Shown: positions 47,004 through 58,806 of the stretch, piece after piece
Layout of the letters: each line of letters starts with the position of its first letter
How positions within the stretch are numbered: position 1 is the stretch's first letter
Sequence record: MT446414.1
DNA from: Escherichia virus TH43
DNA length: 64,000 bases
Reading direction: 5' to 3' (one strand)
The notes under the pieces: model-generated
The model's input: only the letters and a program-made list of their open reading frames with translations
What the model was told of the DNA's origin: nothing
The model's database searches: none
Program-made: the position numbers and the translations under genes

Positions 47004-47232
47004 TATAACGATAGTCTTTATAAGTCTCAGCTTTGTAGGTTACAAAGCATCTCATGTACAACCAGCCCAATGAACTCAGGTCTATTGTAACATCAAAATC
47101 TTCATCATCGTCTAGGTCTACTAATCTACCCAAACAAGTTATTACTTCAGTGTCCCCAACTTCTTCAACTTTAAATGCACATTTTTCAGTGCGGAAGTAA
47201 GGAATCAACTCTGATAAAAAGTCTAGAATCAT
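46966..47232 (-). CDS. hypothetical protein
   Basis: ORF track. Confidence 0.4.
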   Translation of the reverse strand: MILDFLSELIPYFRTEKCAFKVEEVGDTEVITCLGRLVDLDDDEDFDVTIDLSSLGWLYMRCFVTYKAETYKDYRYSDNTDTEGENDE

Positions 47233-47264
47233 TTTTATATCTCCTCTGATAAACGAGAGTGGCT

Positions 47265-47361
47265 AACCCATAAAGGCGTATTCATCTAAAGGCCCACCCA
47301 TGTATGAACCCATGTACGCTGATGTAAAGGGGACTCTATAAAGGCATACCCATAAAGGCCA
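47265..47361. repeat. cluster of ACCCAT(AAAGGC / GTA) direct repeats
   Basis: ACCCATAAAGGC twice, ACCCATGTA twice, ACCCATGAG once. Confidence 0.5.
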
Positions 47362-47454
47362 TGTCACATTAAGGCCACCTCATACCCATGAGCATGTCTC
47401 CACTCTACTTCATAATCCTCTTCGGTGAAGCTACCGTAGTCTTCTTCAGTCATG

Positions 47455-47646
47455 TTAAGGCCTATCCACCCATTTACTATTCCTCACCTTACCACAGTCT
47501 GCACATCTCCATGTACTCTTGTAATAAGCGTGTAATCGTTCATCACCTCTTGATATCCGGATTGGATAGTACTCGTGATTACATTTGAATTGCTTAACTA
47601 GTAACTTAATCTTCCACATAAAGTTGTTCCTCACTCTTAAATCCAC
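47455..47646 (-). CDS. small zinc-finger protein
   Basis: CNHEY...CADCGK Cys/His pattern. Confidence 0.4.
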   Translation of the reverse strand: MDLRVRNNFMWKIKLLVKQFKCNHEYYPIRISRGDERLHAYYKSTWRCADCGKVRNSKWVDRP

Positions 47647-47819
47647 AACTAACGTTGGGGCATATAGTTATATATAAGGGTTTTAAATTCTGATTTGACC
47701 GAGTGGACCTAGCCCCTCCGAGCGCGTTTCCTAAAAAGGGGGAGTCCTCATTTAAAAAAGGGTTATTACCAATGCAATTGCCTTTAGGAAATCAATCAGC
47801 CTTTAAGCTCTAAGCCTTG

Positions 47820-48395
47820 CCCTACCTGCTATCAGTGGCATGCCTACCCATAAATACCCTACCCATTAATATAAGCCATCTATTTAATACCCATGTATAT
47901 CTAACCAGTGATTTCCTACCCGTATTTCTCTTACTCATATTGAGAAGGGATGAAAGGCTAGACTCTGATGCACTGTTAAGGGGTTATAATAAGAGGGCTA
48001 ATAGTAAGGGCTATTATAGTAAGGTTAGTGATGGTAACACCATGCAATTATATCAATCCTCACACTACCCCACGTTTAATAGTAATAACCTATGTTAATG
48101 TTTCATGAGTGGATTATTGATGTATGTATCATTAGACTGGAAGTAATAACTTTCTTTTATTATTCTCTTTTAATCTTTTCTTTTTCAGCGTGCTGTTGGT
48201 CTTTTTCTTTTGTTGTTTGAGTAAATTATTTGACTGGTAATTAACTCCCGCATGGTCTGGTCTGTCATCTGTAACTAACTTACATTATACCCTACCCGTT
48301 TCCCCTTCCTCGTTAGGCTTCTTACCCATTGGCTAACCTATGCGGCACGTTCTACCCATCTGTCGTTGCCGTTGGTCTGCTACCCGTTCTATAAG
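47820..48395. repeat. dispersed YTACCC(A/G)T repeats plus TAAG(A/G)GGCTA direct repeats in ORF-free region
   Basis: about 8 CTACCC(A/G)T copies; AATAAGAGGGCTAATAGTAAGGGCTATTATAGTAAGG at 47981-48020. Confidence 0.5.
48100..48240. other. AT-rich segment (candidate DNA-unwinding element)
   Basis: long AT-rich stretch between repeat clusters. Confidence 0.3.
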
Positions 48396-48504
48396 TGTTA
48401 TAAAGTAACATTCTGTTAGTAAGCTGTACCTCTGAGTAAGAAAGTTTAGTAAATTAAATTCCTTTTAGATTCAATGAGTTATGAAATAGTTTGAAAATAA
48501 GTGG

Positions 48505-48532
48505 TTGACATGTTTTTCCTTTAATATATAGT
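48505..48532 (+). promoter_or_regulatory. sigma70-type promoter (TTGACA-16-TATAGT)
   Basis: consensus -35 and near-consensus -10; ~40 nt upstream of gene at 48571. Confidence 0.6.
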
Positions 48533-48570
48533 TGCGACTGTAGTTCACATCAACCGAAAGGATTAATGAA

Positions 48571-49434
48571 ATGTCAAAGTTAGCAATTAAATACTTGAAT
48601 CAGGCAAATGATGTACTTTCTCTGTTAGGTCTTTCCGTTGGTGTGCCTTCTCAATGGATGGATAACCAGCAAGCTCGTACCAGCTTTAAAAACTCTGTCA
48701 TTCTGGCTTGTCTTATCATAGATTCCGCTGCGAACGCCTTACAGTGTGAAGATGAGCAGTCAATGAAAGAGAATGGTTTTACAGATATGCAAGATGCTAT
48801 CAACTGTTACATTCAGGCTAATTTAGATAGTTGGACTCAGAATGATTGGCCTGAATCTTGCCGCGATGTTAACGCAGTATTATCCCGCTTGTCTGCTATG
48901 GTTGAAGCTGTTCAGAACAAGAAGAAGAAAGATAGCAAGCCTTCTATTGCAAGTAAGATTATGAAGTCTGTCAACCTTGCAAGTTATGCACTGGTTGCAG
49001 CTATCGGTGTCAGTGCTATCGCTCCCAATGTGCAGGCAAAAGACTCTCTTTCTACTGGTCTGCAATCCTTTGTTAGCACGTTTAAGAATGCTCCTGATAT
49101 GGCTTGCCGTGACGTTGGCAGTGATGGTAATGATTCATTCTGGAAGGTGCATTTTAACTCTGTAACCGTAAAAGATGTGCGTGTCACTCTTACCCCGTTA
49201 GGTGAGAAATCAGGCATTCAGTCGGTTATTAATTTAAAGCGTGCTGACAGTGATCATGATATGGTTACTTATTCTCTATATCAGAAGATTGAGAAAGAGA
49301 AATTACAGTTTGTAACTAATCTCGTTAGTTATGGTGATGTGAGTGAAACTGTACTCGCTACCACTGCTTACAATGACGGTGTAGCAGTTTATACAACCTT
49401 TATTAACTTTGCTAATTGCGAGGCTATCCAGTGA
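48571..49434 (+). CDS. hypothetical membrane protein (one TM helix)
   Basis: RBS AAAGGA; TM segment LASYALVAAIGVSAIAP. Confidence 0.5.
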   Translation: MSKLAIKYLNQANDVLSLLGLSVGVPSQWMDNQQARTSFKNSVILACLIIDSAANALQCEDEQSMKENGFTDMQDAINCYIQANLDSWTQNDWPESCRDVNAVLSRLSAMVEAVQNKKKKDSKPSIASKIMKSVNLASYALVAAIGVSAIAPNVQAKDSLSTGLQSFVSTFKNAPDMACRDVGSDGNDSFWKVHFNSVTVKDVRVTLTPLGEKSGIQSVINLKRADSDHDMVTYSLYQKIEKEKLQFVTNLVSYGDVSETVLATTAYNDGVAVYTTFINFANCEAIQ

Positions 49435-49679
49435 ACGAATCATTTGCAACCGTAATAAACTCTCATATGTGCATTCAGCATGGTGATTTGGTTATCAGCG
49501 GTAAATATGGGCTTGTACTGATCCCTATCCGTGCGCTAGTGTCTTTATCTTCATTGCGTGCACGCATGACCATCGCTCAGTTGTCCGGCCTTGATCCGAT
49601 GGATGCTAACGAATATCGTGATTTGCTGGTTAAATCTGGTCTATCGCTGGAAGAATTACTAACCATTGAGGATAATTAA
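49431..49679 (+). CDS. hypothetical protein (GTG start; track ORF begins 49416)
   Basis: ORF track. Confidence 0.4.
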   Translation: MNESFATVINSHMCIQHGDLVISGKYGLVLIPIRALVSLSSLRARMTIAQLSGLDPMDANEYRDLLVKSGLSLEELLTIEDN

Positions 49680-49681
49680 CG

Positions 49682-49954
49682 ATGGAAACTATTGCCATTA
49701 TTGAAACACATAATTACGGCGTAGGCATTACACTGAATTATGATGCTATGGCTGACGTTGGTAATTTGTTATTGATCACCCCTAGCGATATGAAAATTAT
49801 TGCCTTCACTGGTATTATGCTTATTGGTGCGGATTATCTTGAGCTAGCCCAATTCTTTGCCCGTAATGGCCTACTATTGGACGTTGACGAGGTGCAAGCC
49901 ATTTGTGAAACCTTTGATAACTATCTAGATAAGGTAGTAAGTGGTGAGCAATGA
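49682..49954 (+). CDS. small acidic protein
   Basis: ORF track. Confidence 0.45.
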   Translation: METIAIIETHNYGVGITLNYDAMADVGNLLLITPSDMKIIAFTGIMLIGADYLELAQFFARNGLLLDVDEVQAICETFDNYLDKVVSGEQ

Positions 49955-50053
49955 TTCATAAATATTTCTTGCATTGCCTGATTGCTTTCTGTATCATGTT
50001 ATTTACCTATGACATGATTTCTTATGTTGCACGTTCCTTGTAAGGGTTGGATT

Positions 50054-50380
50054 ATGAAAATTAAATTAGCTGTATGTGCTGCCTTGTTCGCTGTTTCTTC
50101 CGTGTCACATGCTGCCGTATTCAATGAGGCTAGCCTTGATGGTCTGCAATGCACCTATCTAATGGAAAATTACGACACTGGCAAAAAGTCTAGCAAGGTA
50201 GTATTGATTGACCTGAATGATTATGATCATCGTGTCGTTGATGGCAAGCATGCAATGCTAGTCAATGAAACTACAGGCAAGCAAATTACTATTGATCACA
50301 TGATGCGGTCTAGCATGACGTTGTTCGATGAGTCGATGAACGAAATAGCATCAGGTAACGGCACTTGCACCAATCCGTAA
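50054..50380 (+). CDS. secreted protein (signal peptide)
   Basis: MKIKLAVCAALFAVSSVSHA signal peptide; RBS AAGGG. Confidence 0.5.
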   Translation: MKIKLAVCAALFAVSSVSHAAVFNEASLDGLQCTYLMENYDTGKKSSKVVLIDLNDYDHRVVDGKHAMLVNETTGKQITIDHMMRSSMTLFDESMNEIASGNGTCTNP

Positions 50381-50400
50381 CCAACCCGTAAGACTCTCTA

Positions 50401-50426
50401 AGCGCCCTTTTGAGGCGCTTTTTTCA
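50401..50426 (+). terminator. rho-independent terminator
   Basis: AGCGCC...GGCGCT hairpin plus TTTTTT. Confidence 0.55.
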
Positions 50427-50586
50427 TTTCTAAGGTGATTGCACATCTTGCCCCTGTTTATCTCGTTAGAACGCCTCCTACATGCCTAGCTTTTGATTAT
50501 AATGCTTGTTTTCTTCCTCCCTTGATGTTATTCGTGCGCGTGCTCATCTATACCTAAAAGAAAGTGAAATTATTTTAGAAAAAGGT

Positions 50587-50615
50587 ATTGCTTTCTTTGC
50601 TTGATAGATTTATAT
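50587..50615 (+). promoter_or_regulatory. sigma70-like promoter (TTGCTT-17-TATATT), weaker
   Basis: sequence match only. Confidence 0.3.
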
Positions 50616-50675
50616 TTGAATCTCAGGTTTAGTTATGCAGTCGGTAGCAAGCCTGATAGGCTAGACTTTTAGCCT

Positions 50676-50688
50676 TGCTCTTTAAAAA
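50676..50688 (+). promoter_or_regulatory. boxA-like antitermination element (TGCTCTTTAAAAA)
   Basis: matches rrn/lambda boxA consensus; preceded by short hairpin. Confidence 0.5.
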
Positions 50689-50742
50689 CTCGATTAGTGT
50701 ATCTTGATAAACTCCCAACCATGCCATAATGAGGATTTATCA

Positions 50743-50943
50743 ATGAACATCTATACCTTCTCAAGCAAAGACACACAAATCACTTGCACTAGCATTAACG
50801 TTACTAACATGATTATGAGAATAGTCGGTAGTACATTACAGCAAGCGAAAGAAATGGTAGCCGATGCCGATAAAGGTAAAGCTATCGCGGTCTTATCGCT
50901 GGTAAGTACAGATAAAGATTTAACCTTTAAACGTATGAACTAG
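50743..50943 (+). CDS. small hypothetical protein
   Basis: ORF track 50704..50943; ATG 50743 after RBS TGAGGA. Confidence 0.45.
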   Translation: MNIYTFSSKDTQITCTSINVTNMIMRIVGSTLQQAKEMVADADKGKAIAVLSLVSTDKDLTFKRMN

Positions 50944-51010
50944 GGTAAGGTAAGGTTAGCGGCCTTAATGGTCGCTAGTTTATCAAGATGCATTAATCGA
51001 AAAATAGTTG

Positions 51011-51038
51011 TTGACACGTCGAATCGTTATGATAAGAT
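51011..51038 (+). promoter_or_regulatory. sigma70 promoter (TTGACA-16-TAAGAT)
   Basis: consensus -35; -10 TAAGAT. Confidence 0.55.
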
Positions 51039-51084
51039 GTGCACATGGTCAGCGATGACATAAAACATCCGGCACTAAGTGCCC

Positions 51085-51097
51085 CGCTCTTTAATAA
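51085..51097 (+). promoter_or_regulatory. boxA-like antitermination element (CGCTCTTTAATAA)
   Basis: preceded by hairpin GGCACTAAGTGCC; followed by TTTATC as in rrn leaders. Confidence 0.55.
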
Positions 51098-51172
51098 TTT
51101 ATCGTCTTGCCCTTTCGCAAAGATTCACGCGAGATAAGGGAAGAGAACAAAAAGAAGACGATAAAAAAAGAG

Positions 51173-51200
51173 TTGACAAGGTGAAACGTTCTGATAGAAT
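51173..51200 (+). promoter_or_regulatory. sigma70 promoter (TTGACA-16-TAGAAT) with A-rich UP-like element
   Basis: consensus -35, strong -10, A-tract upstream. Confidence 0.65.
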
Positions 51201-51223
51201 GTTCACTAAGCAGTAAGAAACAC

Positions 51224-51236
51224 CGCTCTTTAAAAA
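51224..51236 (+). promoter_or_regulatory. boxA-like antitermination element (CGCTCTTTAAAAA)
   Basis: ~25 nt downstream of promoter at 51173. Confidence 0.5.
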
Positions 51237-51340
51237 TATGAATCAGAAAGTTAAGCGCAACCGCTTACAATCTTGTTAATCCAATACGTGATTAACTGGT
51301 CATTCGAAAGAATAGACGAGAAAAAGATTTAAAAAAGTGG

Positions 51341-51369
51341 TTGACACGCTAAACAGGATGATTCATAAT
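51341..51369 (+). promoter_or_regulatory. sigma70 promoter (TTGACA-17-CATAAT) with A-rich UP-like element
   Basis: consensus -35, good -10, A-tract upstream. Confidence 0.65.
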
Positions 51370-51458
51370 GAGCACTCACTAAGCAAATCACCGCGAAGTG
51401 AACAGCGTAACAACGGCTAACAGTTGCATAGTGTGAGAAAGCACACTGATAGATTTAC

Positions 51459-51472
51459 CGCTCTTTAACAAT
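51459..51472 (+). promoter_or_regulatory. boxA-like antitermination element (CGCTCTTTAACAATTTA)
   Basis: near-identical to E. coli rrn leader boxA; preceded by hairpin GTGTGAGAAAGCACAC. Confidence 0.6.
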
Positions 51473-52285
51473 TTAAACATTCTCCTATATCGGTTGAATA
51501 TGCTAGATGATAATAACCATCGGATAGCATACCAGATAAAACGGTGTAAGATTCTCTAAGTTATCAGAGTAAACAATCTCACAATCCCTTACTGGAAACG
51601 TCACCACTGATAAGCAGATTCATCGAGTGCACGCAAAGACTTAAGCTAATCGCCCACGGTTAAGGGTAGCGGCGGTCATCGCTAACAAGGCGCTACGGTG
51701 AAAGAAGTTAATCAGGGTAGACAAGCCCGACTAATTAACGCTCAATTGAGAGCGGCGGGGAGTGGTTAAAAAGTGGCAAATTGCTATTTAACAATAAGGT
51801 TTAGTGTGAACGTTTACGAAGTGAATGATTTGAGGCCACTATTGATGGCGTACATAATCAGTTTATGTAGTAAACCTGCTGAAAGATATAAAACGTCAAT
51901 GTATCAGGCGGCTAATGACTCTTTCGCAATAACCTCCCGTAGTGGGCGATGGTTAGCGATTGAGAGTTGGTATAAAAGGATAGGCGGGAGCGAAAGCAAA
52001 GTAAACGATATTACCGACGGTTACAATAAAGTAACTAATTAGAGTCGGGCACACTGCCTTATTGTGATGATTGATCATCGCTATCAGGTCGGCTTCGTTT
52101 ATAGCGACTAATTAAAGATACCAGATGAAACATCACGGATAATGGGGCGGCTAGGTTAACTCCTGATAAGACCGCCCCACTTACCTATAACTACTTAATA
52201 ACGAGCGGTTATAGTTAAGTCATTGTGACTTGAATAGCTCATAGAGAGCGGCGCATAGAGCGTTTCAATTAAAAGGTAAATTATC

Positions 52286-53188
52286 ATGGCTAAATCTTTC
52301 AATCTGGTTAACGAATCTGGCTTTAACGCACTGGCTAACAACATTCGTAGCAACAACGCAGCGATTAAGCAAGATGTTTCTAACTTCCTGTTAGGTCACT
52401 TACAGCACTTCCGTGCTAACGGTAAGAAGTTAGATGTATTGCAGGCGGCAGTAGACTTCCTGTTAACCGAGCGTTACCGTGATTTAGATGTGATTGCGGT
52501 TGCAATCTCTTTCCTCACTCCTATCAAGTACAACAGCGACGGGGCGAACGGTAAAAAGAAATGGATTAATCTGGAAGGTGAAGCGAAAGCGAAAGAAGAC
52601 GCTAAGCCGGAACAAGTTAAGGCCAAAATGGAACAAAACCGTGCCCGCTGGTCTAACTCCTTTGAACGCTTTGCGAAAGGTGAAGACGTGCAGGTTGATA
52701 ATCCAGCTTTCTATAAAGGTTGCAATGACAACGTGCCAGTTGCCAACCAAATCAACCAGAAAGTTGGCGAAAACTTCAGCCAGGATATTTACGCCTTAAC
52801 TGATCGTTTGGCTGCAATCCGTATTGAAGCGGCCTTACTGGCTGATGAGCGCAACGGTGCATCTTCTGATAACACTATCGCATTGAGTGAAGAGGTAGGC
52901 AAAGTTAAGAAAACTTTTGATTCACTCCTTAAGAAAGTAACCGCATCAACTGTATCTATCAGCGATGACTATCTGATCAATGCCTCAGCCAAAGAGCTTG
53001 AATCTCTGGATTCATACGCTGATGAAATGGAGAAAGCGATCAACGAAATGACTGAAAAATTGTCTAACCTTCGCGGTCGTATCTCAAATGCTTCAACTGT
53101 CAAAGCGAACGAGAAGGCGGCGGCAGATGAGGAAGAAGTATTGCGCAAAGCTGCCGCAATCATGGCAGCACGCCAACAAGCTGCATAA
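52286..53188 (+). CDS. hypothetical protein (300 aa), first gene downstream of the tandem early promoters
   Basis: ORF track; terminator downstream. Confidence 0.55.
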   Translation: MAKSFNLVNESGFNALANNIRSNNAAIKQDVSNFLLGHLQHFRANGKKLDVLQAAVDFLLTERYRDLDVIAVAISFLTPIKYNSDGANGKKKWINLEGEAKAKEDAKPEQVKAKMEQNRARWSNSFERFAKGEDVQVDNPAFYKGCNDNVPVANQINQKVGENFSQDIYALTDRLAAIRIEAALLADERNGASSDNTIALSEEVGKVKKTFDSLLKKVTASTVSISDDYLINASAKELESLDSYADEMEKAINEMTEKLSNLRGRISNASTVKANEKAAADEEEVLRKAAAIMAARQQAA

Positions 53189-53208
53189 CTTACAATAAAG
53201 AACATATA

Positions 53209-53242
53209 AGGCGCTATTCGAAAGGGTAGCGCCTTTTCTTTT
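53209..53242 (+). terminator. rho-independent terminator
   Basis: GGCGCTA-TTCGAAAGGG-TAGCGCC hairpin plus T-tract. Confidence 0.6.
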
Positions 53243-53296
53243 ACTAGTGCATTGATTCAGTGTACTAATCAAAGAAGCTAAAAAGAGATAAACACC

Positions 53297-53521
53297 ATGC
53301 CAAAATTGAAAACAGAAGTTAAGATGTATCGTAATATCTTAAACAACATGACCTATCGTAAAACCGATAAGTATGGAATCGAGTGTAAATGCATCCTTAC
53401 CGGTGAATGGTATCCGTCACCGATTCAAGAACAAGCATTGATTGAAAACTCTGTTACTTACACCATCACGCAGGAAACTAAGCTAGGCCGATTCCTTCGT
53501 AAGTTAGGGCTACGCAAATGA
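53297..53521 (+). CDS. hypothetical protein
   Basis: ORF track. Confidence 0.45.
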   Translation: MPKLKTEVKMYRNILNNMTYRKTDKYGIECKCILTGEWYPSPIQEQALIENSVTYTITQETKLGRFLRKLGLRK

Positions 53522-53739
53522 TCTTAACTCAATCCCACCTTTGCCCTATCTGTAAGAAAGCGCGTGCTAATAACAACCATCGCAAGTGTAGTAGAATCTT
53601 ACAACGACGTCGTAATGATGCCGAGATGGATAAGCTGCACAAAAATCAGCATGAGCACGAAAGAAAACAAGCGGCGATTAGTGCATCTTCTGTAATGTAT
53701 CGTCGTGTAAGATCACTCCAATATAGGGAGGTTATTTAA
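53518..53739 (+). CDS. small basic protein with CxxC
   Basis: ORF track. Confidence 0.45.
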   Translation: MILTQSHLCPICKKARANNNHRKCSRILQRRRNDAEMDKLHKNQHEHERKQAAISASSVMYRRVRSLQYREVI

Positions 53740-53948
53740 TGACCAGCTTAAGCACGTTAGAGAAGAAAGCTACTCGTTTGTTAGGGCGTCGTGTCCGCTA
53801 TCACTACCTGAATAAAGGCAAGGCATTAACCGGACGTATTACCACGGTATCCAGTTGTCGCGGTAAACTGATCTCTGTAAGTGTTCTCTTTGATGGCGAA
53901 CGGGTAGCAATTACGCGTAGCTGGAAGTCGTTTAGTTTGATTGATTAA
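53739..53948 (+). CDS. hypothetical protein
   Basis: ORF track. Confidence 0.45.
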   Translation: MTSLSTLEKKATRLLGRRVRYHYLNKGKALTGRITTVSSCRGKLISVSVLFDGERVAITRSWKSFSLID

Positions 53949-54018
53949 GTTATTTGGTTAAGCCTTGCTATGTGGTAAGGCTTGCACGATATAATTTATC
54001 AGCGAAAGGAATAAAGCA

Positions 54019-58317: not shown

Positions 58318-58740
58318 TTGAAGATAGAGTTAGAATACCCCTTCGTTAATGACTGGCGATTGGGCTACTTAAGAACAAGCAGAGACGGTAGGAAGCGTGT
58401 TGATTTGTATAATACCGACACGGAGAGGACAACCATTTCTTACGCAAGATATTTAATGTCTTGTCACATAGGCAGGTACCTAACTGAAGACGAGGAGGTT
58501 GATCATATTGACAGAAATAAAACTAATGATGACATATCTAATCTTCAGATACTTTCCATAGAAAATCACAGAAAGAAGTCAACATTAGAAGCAACTACTG
58601 GAAGAACAATGATTTCAGTTGTTTGCTCTTATTGTGGAAGATCTTTTGAAAAAGAAAAGCGAAATGTTAAATATGCAAATTCTTTTTGTAACAGATCATG
58701 TGCAGGTAAGTATAACGGTTTCAAATCTATCGGGGCGTAG
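58318..58740 (+). CDS. HNH homing-endonuclease-like protein
   Basis: EEVDHIDRNKTNDDISNLQILSIENHRKK HNH motif. Confidence 0.55.
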   Translation: MKIELEYPFVNDWRLGYLRTSRDGRKRVDLYNTDTERTTISYARYLMSCHIGRYLTEDEEVDHIDRNKTNDDISNLQILSIENHRKKSTLEATTGRTMISVVCSYCGRSFEKEKRNVKYANSFCNRSCAGKYNGFKSIGA

Positions 58741-58806
58741 TCTAGTGGAACAGGCAGCGAGCTTCTAACTCGCCTTACGAGGGTTCGAATCCTTCCGTCC
58801 CGACCA
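58731..58806 (+). tRNA. tRNA-Arg (anticodon TCT)
   Basis: hand-folded 76 nt cloverleaf: 7 bp acceptor, D-loop with GG, anticodon loop CTTCTAA, T-loop TTCGAAT, encoded CCA. Confidence 0.8.

Follow-up and report, generated by a model that had tools for sequence, protein, structure and literature searches.

A large two-domain RNA fold behind tandem promoters and boxA signals in the early region of phiEco32-like phages

The stretch analysed here, referred to as the window, comprises 64,000 nucleotides of Escherichia virus TH43 (record MT446414.1). Its positions 51473-52285, an interval of 813 nucleotides, separate the last of several boxA sequences (51460-51470) from the first downstream ATG (52286), which opens the gene for the homologue of phiEco32 gp124. 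The interval is most likely the body of a non-coding, highly structured RNA that forms the leader of the rightward early gp124 unit and lies behind three tandem strong sigma-70 promoters. The RNA is approximately 0.83 kb long, or approximately 0.9 kb when counted from the nearest promoter, and on the + strand it folds into two domains of several helices, each with a long-range closing helix of its own, and a 3' series of eight hairpins. The original prediction, made from this one sequence, had described recurring GC-rich motifs and hairpins in a leader of about 800 nucleotides and had proposed a possible structured RNA; the element is much larger and more elaborate than that description.

A megablast search with positions 50900-52400 retrieved 97 Escherichia and Shigella phage genomes, with SU7 (93.8%) and Bas88 (95%) as the closest, and identified the window as that of a phiEco32-like prolate podophage of the subfamily Gordonclarkvirinae. 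The interval lies within the gene-free spacer between phiEco32 genes 125 (gp125) and 124 (gp124), which in the phiEco32 reference record extends over approximately 1.9 kb without any annotation. For this spacer of SU10 and phiEco32, three promoters have been expected to be recognised by the sigma-70 holoenzyme (PMC4281155). Directly past gp124 stands a strong intrinsic terminator (53208-53235); thus, the promoters with boxA, the RNA, gp124 and the terminator constitute, in that order, one discrete unit. At the equivalent site, a terminator and a new promoter are annotated in the SU7 record.

A consensus fold supported by compensatory changes

Together with the window, 23 distinct relatives gave a set of 24 sequences with leader identities of 71-95% (mean 86%). 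Their promoter, leader and gp124 region was aligned with MAFFT, and a consensus fold was derived with RNAalifold from a sequence-only MAFFT alignment of the 24 distinct leaders. The fold comprises 225 base pairs in 37 helices, and standard pairs occupy 99.3% of 5386 cells. Both sides have changed in 72 of the 225 pairs (338 cells), with a covariation score of 0.250; this comparison across related phages, which had been proposed as a check, strongly supports a structured RNA, together with the strand specificity described below.

When the 3' partners were moved by 1-3 columns as a slide control, pairing fell to 34-48%, and only 5-12 pairs showed double changes. Likewise, none of 500 column shuffles reached the observed value for four of five measures, and two did so for the fifth (further pair types). 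There are 638 G.U cells vs 18 A.C cells. The consensus energy is -228 kcal/mol on the + strand vs -143 kcal/mol on the reverse-complement alignment, and this far better folding on the + strand indicates that the structure belongs to the sense RNA, not to the DNA or to an antisense transcript. Taken alone, the window sequence folds with z = -6.6 relative to dinucleotide shuffles.

The fold also extends to sequences from which it had not been derived. Phage LAMP, held out and 86% identical to the nearest training sequence, retains 216 of the 225 pairs, with 10 double changes and 21 single changes that preserve pairing; its two insertions, of 21 and 11 nucleotides, are confined to a junction and a loop within Domain II. 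Four held-out metagenomic sequences retain 221-224 pairs. Compensatory changes that keep helices on one strand, by which structured non-coding RNAs in general are recognised, are hence present in this family.

Conservation and coding potential

All 97 related phage genomes in GenBank contain the interval over its entire length, at 77-95% identity. In the alignment, all sequences are collinear from approximately 51222 onwards, and the promoter region upstream of approximately 51220 is rich in insertions and deletions. Column conservation in the leader is approximately 0.9, the same as in the gp124 coding sequence; the pattern of change, however, differs. Variable sites are distributed over the three phases of the leader as 113/118/127, vs 83/57/243 over codon positions 1/2/3 of gp124, and 44% of leader columns are variable vs 81% of gp124 third codon positions. 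Codon periodicity of substitutions was found in no 90-nucleotide window of the leader, many single-base insertions and deletions are scattered across it, and the 24 leaders have no open reading frame (ORF) of at least 24 codons in common. A few ORFs of 14-23 codons persist in at least 18 of the 24 sequences, mostly with GTG or TTG starts, which is as expected in any conserved sequence.

These observations argue against the micro-ORFs that had been offered as an alternative: the variable sites lack a codon phase, one-nucleotide insertions and deletions are frequent, and nothing longer than the 14-23-codon frames persists. The only sizeable frame, a GTG-initiated ORF of 89 amino acids (51773-52042) within Domain II, had rightly been doubted, as it is not conserved in relatives. 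Conserved proteins encoded here by related phages, which had been named as the outcome that would speak against an RNA, were looked for and are absent. With neither periodicity nor frame-preserving changes nor a conserved ORF, the interval is not protein-coding. Moreover, the 4-7 'hypothetical protein' coding sequences of 30-50 codons that the deposited annotations of 101114UKE3 and CHD5UKE1 place on both strands of the RNA region are almost certainly false gene calls.

The interval is under purifying selection at paired and unpaired positions alike, since 56% of unpaired and 56% of paired columns are invariant. Such equal invariance of unpaired columns is what RNAs that adopt a tertiary structure or bind partners typically show, in contrast to a string of stabilising hairpins.

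Organization of the folded RNA

The coordinates of the signals, domains and helices are collected in Table 1. Domain I contains a long arm whose lower part (H9/10) has 26 pairs and whose tip is formed by H12-14; Domain II is closed by an imperfect long-range helix and encloses H21, H22-26 and H27/28.

Table 1. Features of the promoter-leader-gp124 unit (window coordinates)
Feature	Position	Strand	Description
Hairpin AGGCTAGACTTTTAGCCT with boxA GCTCTTTAAAA; module TGCTCTTTAAAA	50658-50687	+	fourth module, context outside the finding; boxA at 50677-50687
Promoter P1	51011-51038	+	TTGACA-16-TAAGAT, TG before -10; 10 of 12 matches
boxB-like hairpin GGCACTAAGTGCC	51071-51083	+	followed by boxA #1
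boxA #1 GCTCTTTAATA	51086-51096	+	
Promoter P2	51173-51200	+	TTGACA-16-TAGAAT, TG before -10; 11 of 12 matches
boxA #2 GCTCTTTAAAA	51225-51235	+	boxA at this position in 24 of 24 sequences
Promoter P3	51341-51369	+	TTGACA-17-CATAAT; 11 of 12 matches; predicted start near 51377
boxB-like hairpin AGTGTG-AGAAAG-CACACT	51430-51447	+	12 nucleotides upstream of boxA #3; 3 covarying pairs
boxA #3 GCTCTTTAACA	51460-51470	+	perfect GYTCTTTAANA match, invariant in all relatives
RNA Domain I	51472-51770	+	closed by H2 (51472-51484 with 51758-51770; 3 covarying pairs) plus H3
H4/5	51499-51531		Domain I interior; 4 covarying pairs in H4
H6-8	51532-51595		Domain I interior; 5 covarying pairs in H7
H9-14	51600-51722		Domain I interior, long arm; 8 covarying pairs in H9/10
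H15	51740-51753		Domain I interior
Hairpin H16	51771-51793	+	between domains; overlaps the invariant boxA-like sequence
RNA Domain II	51791-52065	+	closed by H17-19 (51791-51817 with 52001-52065); 22 pairs, internal loops; 5 covarying pairs
H21	51826-51860		Domain II interior; 9 covarying pairs
H22-26	51875-51988		Domain II interior; covarying pairs: H22 6 of 6, H24-26 9
H27/28	52014-52048		Domain II interior
3' hairpin series	52066-52264	+	eight hairpins
H29	52066-52079		no covarying pairs
H30	52087-52109		2 covarying pairs
H31	52121-52138		no covarying pairs
H32/33	52144-52178		3 covarying pairs in H32, none in H33
H34	52185-52214		5 covarying pairs
H35	52216-52232		no covarying pairs
H36	52237-52249		no covarying pairs
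H37	52250-52264		1 covarying pair
gp124 homologue	52286-53188	+	300 amino acids; PHROG 13018, function unassigned; sole gene of the unit
Strong intrinsic terminator	53208-53235	+	after gp124; 12-pair stem, then T-run

The features from which the structured RNA had originally been suspected were all recovered at, or a few bases from, the places first given for them, and they proved to be parts of this larger fold. The recurring motifs (GGTAGCGGCGG at 51665, GAGAGCGGCG at 51748 and 52244, and GGTTAGCG at 51951) are strands of covarying helices, and three of the five copies of their core, AGCGGCG, in the 64-kb window lie inside the interval. A module of GCUC-loop-GAGC followed by GGCG is present twice, at 51740-51760 and 52237-52254, which explains the recurrence of GAGAGCGGCG. 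CCAGAURAAAC is likewise found in two copies, at 51532 and 52121, the only ones in the window.

The GC-rich hairpin GGGGCGG...CCGCCCC corresponds to H32/33; its strands lie at 52144-52150 and 52172-52178, and three of its seven stem pairs show compensatory changes. Within its loop of 21 nucleotides (52151-52171), an 18-nucleotide core, AGGUUAACUYCUGAUAAG (52153-52170), is near-invariant, with one Y position. This core includes the self-complementary hexamer GUUAAC, which could mediate dimerisation by kissing loops. GGUUAA recurs in two further conserved unpaired segments, at 51658 and 51764. At the 3' end of the leader, the ribosome-binding region of gp124 is unpaired in the consensus fold, and the segment that adjoins it is the most variable part of the leader.

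Predicted promoters, boxA elements and terminators

Within 50300-53400, P1, P2 and P3 are the three best matches to sigma-70 promoters; all are on the + strand, at 51011, 51173 and 51341, and agree with 10-11 of the 12 consensus positions. Upstream of each of them lies an A-tract, which we take to resemble an UP element.

The boxA consensus GYTCTTTAANA was derived for gamma-proteobacteria from targets of the Nus factors (PMC5725501). Six matches are present in the window vs 0.66 expected, and six or more were obtained in none of 100 shuffles. Four + strand matches are clustered in 50677-51470 (at 50677, 51086, 51225 and 51460), and each boxA follows the -10 hexamer of a sigma-70-type promoter on the + strand at a distance of approximately 25-90 nucleotides. 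In the consensus fold, boxA #3 is unpaired except for a probably spurious three-pair helix, H1. The signals thus show the features of an rrn-type boxA, namely a match to the consensus, a single-stranded position in the sense RNA near a promoter, and a boxB-like hairpin 5' of boxA #1 and #3; no clear hairpin was seen ahead of boxA #2. The number of upstream promoter-boxA modules varies from two to four among relatives, and boxA #2 and #3 are present in 24 of 24 sequences. The upstream modules look like duplicated cassettes, in that CACTAAGCA recurs past the -10 hexamers of P2 and P3.

A further boxA-like sequence, TGCTATTTAACAA (51781-51793), is invariant and lies between Domains I and II, with a C4-to-A mismatch to rrn-type boxA. 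C4 is one of the two positions changed in a double mutant that inactivates boxA (PMC5725501). The 3' half of TGCTATTTAACAA is, in addition, the 5' strand of H17. Because of the mismatch and of this overlap, TGCTATTTAACAA is not counted as a functional boxA; it may be a boxA that has degenerated or a chance resemblance within a helix strand.

No terminator-like site was found in 51470-52286, and the first strong terminator is the one past gp124; a 3' end of its own, which would separate a stand-alone RNA gene from the next gene, is accordingly absent. A riboswitch or attenuator platform was considered as well: neither an intrinsic terminator nor a covariation-supported alternative pairing was found, the search for alternative folds being non-exhaustive. 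A lambda-type nut site was rejected as a candidate, as the hairpins lie 5' of boxA and the sequence directly 3' of boxA #3 is a strand of a long-range helix, not a hairpin.

Occurrence and database searches

The leader RNA and gp124 coincide exactly in their distribution: the 97 GenBank phage records that contain them were recovered alike by queries with the leader of the window, the most divergent leader and the gp124 protein. Further members are found in five IMG/VR contigs and eight metagenome contigs, all from close relatives. In the more distant Salmonella phage 7-11, which has the C3 morphotype, no boxA was found at the right (early) end.

Within the family, the RNA varies in part independently of its gene. 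In TH42, gp124 is 98% identical to that of the window, whereas the leader is only 78% identical. It was also observed that Domains I and II of TH42, TH34 and NC-B are 77-78% identical to those of the window and that the 3' end and gp124 are approximately 98% identical, and that E20-1 has domains like those of the window but carries H30-H34 in their other allelic form. It seems that RNA modules are exchanged as blocks by recombination.

Over 49000-54000, a search of Rfam 15 gave no match at E<=1. With the threshold relaxed to E<=10 over 50950-52320, only seven hits were obtained, with 11-20 bits vs gathering scores of 34-167, so that membership in any Rfam 15 family, including GOLLD, ROOL, OLE, HEARO, raiA, group I and II introns, 6S, tmRNA and RNase P, was rejected. 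ARAGORN detected no tRNA or tmRNA in the leader region. The leader gave no blastn match at E<=10 to E. coli genomes and hence no evidence of sequence-level host mimicry, short complementarities being beyond the reach of blastn. A comparison of the leader with the rest of the window for complementarity or repeats yielded nothing below E=2.8. Two shorter queries were discarded: the 18-mer of the invariant loop had 12 scattered hits in bacterial genomes, approximately the number expected by chance and at places with no known RNA, and an extended boxA 16-mer had at least 120 hits in viral contigs, roughly the chance level. In literature searches, the remark on three promoters was the only mention of this region, the phiEco32 papers Savalia 2008 and Pavlova 2012, which may comment on it, being outside their scope; the leader RNA is apparently previously undescribed.

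Proposed mode of action

The RNA would be made at the very start of infection, behind signals that resemble those of host ribosomal RNA (rRNA) operons. By analogy with these operons, boxA on the nascent RNA would recruit NusB/NusE, which, together with NusA, NusG and SuhB, would make RNA polymerase resistant to Rho. Such resistance would span approximately 0.8-1.3 kb of untranslated RNA, as in rrn operons and arrays of clustered regularly interspaced short palindromic repeats (CRISPR); an untranslated RNA of this length is a natural Rho target, and it is on this ground, from established Nus biology, that shielding by Nus factors is proposed. In CRISPR arrays, boxA shields long untranslated transcripts from Rho (PMC7665894).

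A role in folding is more speculative. In rrn operons, the elements are arranged in the order boxB-boxA-boxC, leader and trailer strands form helices, and the complex has been proposed to retain the leader strand up to the emergence of the trailer strand (PMC10250234). In the phage RNA, the 5' strand of the helix closing Domain I starts one nucleotide past boxA #3. By analogy, the complex might hold this strand until its partner emerges approximately 290 nucleotides later and thereby chaperone the long-range helices.

What the folded RNA does can be suggested with low confidence. It may be functional in its own right, as a protein-binding scaffold, a host-factor sink or a catalyst, possibly after release by processing at the long helices, and, at the same low confidence, it would be neither a mere spacer nor a simple on/off switch of gp124. 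This guess is based on the size of the RNA, the closure of its domains, the conservation of single-stranded nucleotides and the very strong early expression that is predicted; a functional RNA would be made in bulk within the first minutes of infection. It is also possible, though less likely than not, that the RNA is the first member of a new class, in which an approximately 0.8-kb two-domain RNA hijacks the transcription and folding machinery of host rRNA, through tandem rrn-like promoters, boxB/boxA and closing helices similar to leader-trailer helices, and acts in trans early in infection. It could then be, for example, a catalytic RNA, a self-assembling RNA or RNA-protein particle built via kissing dimers of the invariant GUUAAC loop, or a specific sink for a host factor of defence or gene expression.

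Several points weigh against the assignment of a boxA-led, structured leader RNA and against a function of its own. The function of boxA is predicted here from a consensus match only, and transcription of the RNA is predicted from promoter consensus sequences and from the statement in the SU10 paper. As no 3' end is defined between the RNA and gp124, the RNA is formally a 5' leader. No analysis that was run pointed to a specific molecular function of the folded RNA, and the different mosaic histories of gp124 and the RNA argue against tight co-evolution of a specific RNA-gp124 complex. Moreover, the family is phylogenetically narrow (Gordonclarkvirinae of E. coli and Shigella only), and its blocks recombine as alleles. 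Because the sequences share ancestry and some blocks are found as either of two alleles, the counts of covarying cells overstate the number of independent events; the robust measures are the number of double-change pairs and the slide control. Double changes are absent from H1, H16, H29, H31, H33, H35 and H36, and H1, with three pairs that join boxA #3 to the start of gp124, is probably spurious. Finally, no covariation-supported pseudoknot or tertiary contact was found among the unpaired columns.

Alternative explanations

The main rival explanation is that the leader is a purely cis-acting 5' untranslated region (UTR) that stabilises the early mRNA against RNases and tunes the translation or processing of gp124, and that would have no role beyond its own transcript. 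This is a possibility of some weight, though a minor one beside the leader RNA assignment. The RNA and gp124 are contiguous and no terminator intervenes, the two always co-occur, and two long helices with imperfect pairing, H17-19 (22 pairs) and H9/10 (26 pairs), are candidate sites for RNase III, whose substrates they presumably resemble. RNase III sites in the leader of the T7 early mRNA provide a precedent for cis-acting processing. However, approximately 830 nucleotides with 37 helices and two closed multi-branch domains exceed the needs of known stabilisers and translational operators, and unpaired positions are conserved equally with paired ones. Furthermore, the Shine-Dalgarno and AUG region of gp124 is unpaired, no conserved alternative pairing was found for it, and variability is highest in the segment that adjoins the ribosome-binding site.

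According to a second alternative, which appears improbable, the RNA is a decoy or sponge, whose boxA copies and conserved loops titrate NusB/NusE away from rrn, or another RNA-binding protein or a defence sensor, in the course of host takeover. Four consensus boxA copies within 800 nucleotides, a boxA-like copy inside the RNA, invariant single-stranded segments and promoters predicted to be strong and early are all in keeping with such a role. The presence of one boxA per promoter is, however, explained more simply if a signal is required on every transcript; relatives have between two and four upstream modules, the internal copy is off consensus at C4, and no array of repeated protein-binding motifs of the CsrB type is evident.

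It is still less probable that the RNA serves as a replication primer or R-loop origin RNA, which would hybridise to the template and prime phage DNA synthesis in the manner of ColE1 RNA II or of the T7 and T4 origins that are activated by transcription. This role would suit a transcript of host polymerase that is long, folded, untranslated and early, as predicted here, and that carries the G-rich runs GGCGGGG and GGGGCGG, and the fact that we know of no mapping of the replication origin in phiEco32-like phages leaves room for it. Nevertheless, no specific signal points to an origin: the turning point of GC skew is at approximately 48 kb, at the switch of coding strand and away from the interval, which itself holds neither an AT-rich unwinding element nor an iteron array, and transcription runs on into a translated gene.

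Sites that act at the DNA level (operators, packaging or ejection signals) or hidden coding (micro-ORFs, frameshifted genes) might be suspected from the few short ORFs that persist among relatives and from H29, which is a DNA palindrome with GATC, but they are very improbable, as compensatory changes on one strand only with G.U intermediates are inexplicable at the DNA level, codon periodicity is lacking in every 90-nucleotide window, frameshifting insertions and deletions are frequent, and the persisting ORFs start mostly with GTG or TTG.

Comparison with known systems

The leader RNA assignment finds its closest parallel in the E. coli rrn leader and its transcription antitermination complex (rrnTAC). 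Like an rrn operon, the phage locus has tandem strong sigma-70 promoters and a hairpin followed by a boxA that matches GYTCTTTAANA perfectly; its RNA is long, untranslated and highly structured, and a helix that starts directly past boxA closes a domain of approximately 300 nucleotides. A second, boxA-like sequence stands just ahead of the second closed domain in the phage RNA, similar to the position of the second rrn set ahead of 23S. In contrast to rrn, the leader RNA is not rRNA, has no sequence similarity to E. coli and precedes a protein gene; its internal boxA-like copy deviates from the consensus at C4, and no boxC was identified.

In the suhB leader (PMC5725501) and in CRISPR arrays protected by boxA (Stringer et al. 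2020, PMC7665894), boxA likewise opens an unusually long untranslated transcript, on which it would be expected to prevent termination by Rho. The locus described here differs from them in that a single large folded RNA takes the place of a repeat array, in that the phage is virulent, and in that each of the tandem promoters has one boxA.

The T7 early region consists of promoters A1, A2 and A3, a leader, an RNase III site and gene 0.3. In both phages, three tandem strong promoters for host polymerase near the leading genome end are followed by an untranslated leader and the first early gene. The T7 leader, with a few hundred nucleotides and one RNase III hairpin, is nevertheless unlike the 830-nucleotide, multi-domain covarying fold, and there is no sequence relationship between them.

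In lambda nut and HK022 put, cis-acting RNA near the early promoters renders host polymerase resistant to termination, as the phage leader may do by analogy, and boxA is shared with nut. The lambda nut site has boxA followed by boxB and needs the N protein; in the present locus, the hairpin precedes boxA, an N-like protein not having been looked for. The put element, with two hairpins in approximately 70 nucleotides, is far smaller than the leader RNA.

GOLLD, ROOL, OLE, HEARO and raiA are RNAs of more than 500 nucleotides with many covarying helices and conserved unpaired nucleotides; GOLLD and ROOL are found in association with phages and prophages. The leader RNA resembles GOLLD and ROOL only in being large, structured and phage-borne, with no assigned biochemical function. 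It matches none of the covariance models of these five families, and it differs from them as an mRNA leader of a virulent coliphage, placed behind boxA cassettes, and in its very narrow host range.

Neighbouring features

The product of the gene behind the leader, gp124, showed no Pfam domain and no relative in the PDB, and its PHROG family has no assigned function; a single-sequence AlphaFold model was unusable, with a predicted local distance difference test score of 45. The fourth boxA module is located upstream of an ORF of 79 amino acids (50704-50943) and downstream of a terminator at 50400-50420.

Two further observations concern the surroundings of the unit. A tRNA-Arg gene (anticodon TCT) is located in the early region at 58731-58806 of the window, as has also been reported for SU7 and SU10. 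A second stretch of approximately 1.3 kb without an ORF of at least 70 codons extends over approximately 47230-48570, at the switch from leftward late to rightward early genes; it contains the minimum of the cumulative GC skew and probably holds the genome ends or a terminal repeat.

Biological significance

Bacterial and phage RNAs longer than 500 nucleotides with dozens of covarying helices are few, among them rRNAs, RNase P, introns, OLE, GOLLD, ROOL and HEARO, and each such large structured RNA, once studied, opened new biology. As a large structured RNA, whether leader or non-coding, that is coupled to presumed boxA antitermination, the element belongs to a known kind, but there is a real chance of something more novel. 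The phage family is easy to grow in E. coli: Bas86-94, which are members of it, plate on an engineered K-12 strain (PMC11990801). Of all products of infection, this RNA is predicted to be one of the earliest and most abundant.

For the annotation of these genomes, approximately 1.3 kb, for which most annotations show either nothing or spurious small ORFs, merits an RNA gene or leader annotation. If the proposed mechanism is true, the leader would be a clear case in which a virulent phage uses an N-independent boxA system of the rrn type for a long non-coding RNA, and the reach of antitermination by Nus factors would extend beyond rRNA, suhB and CRISPR arrays.

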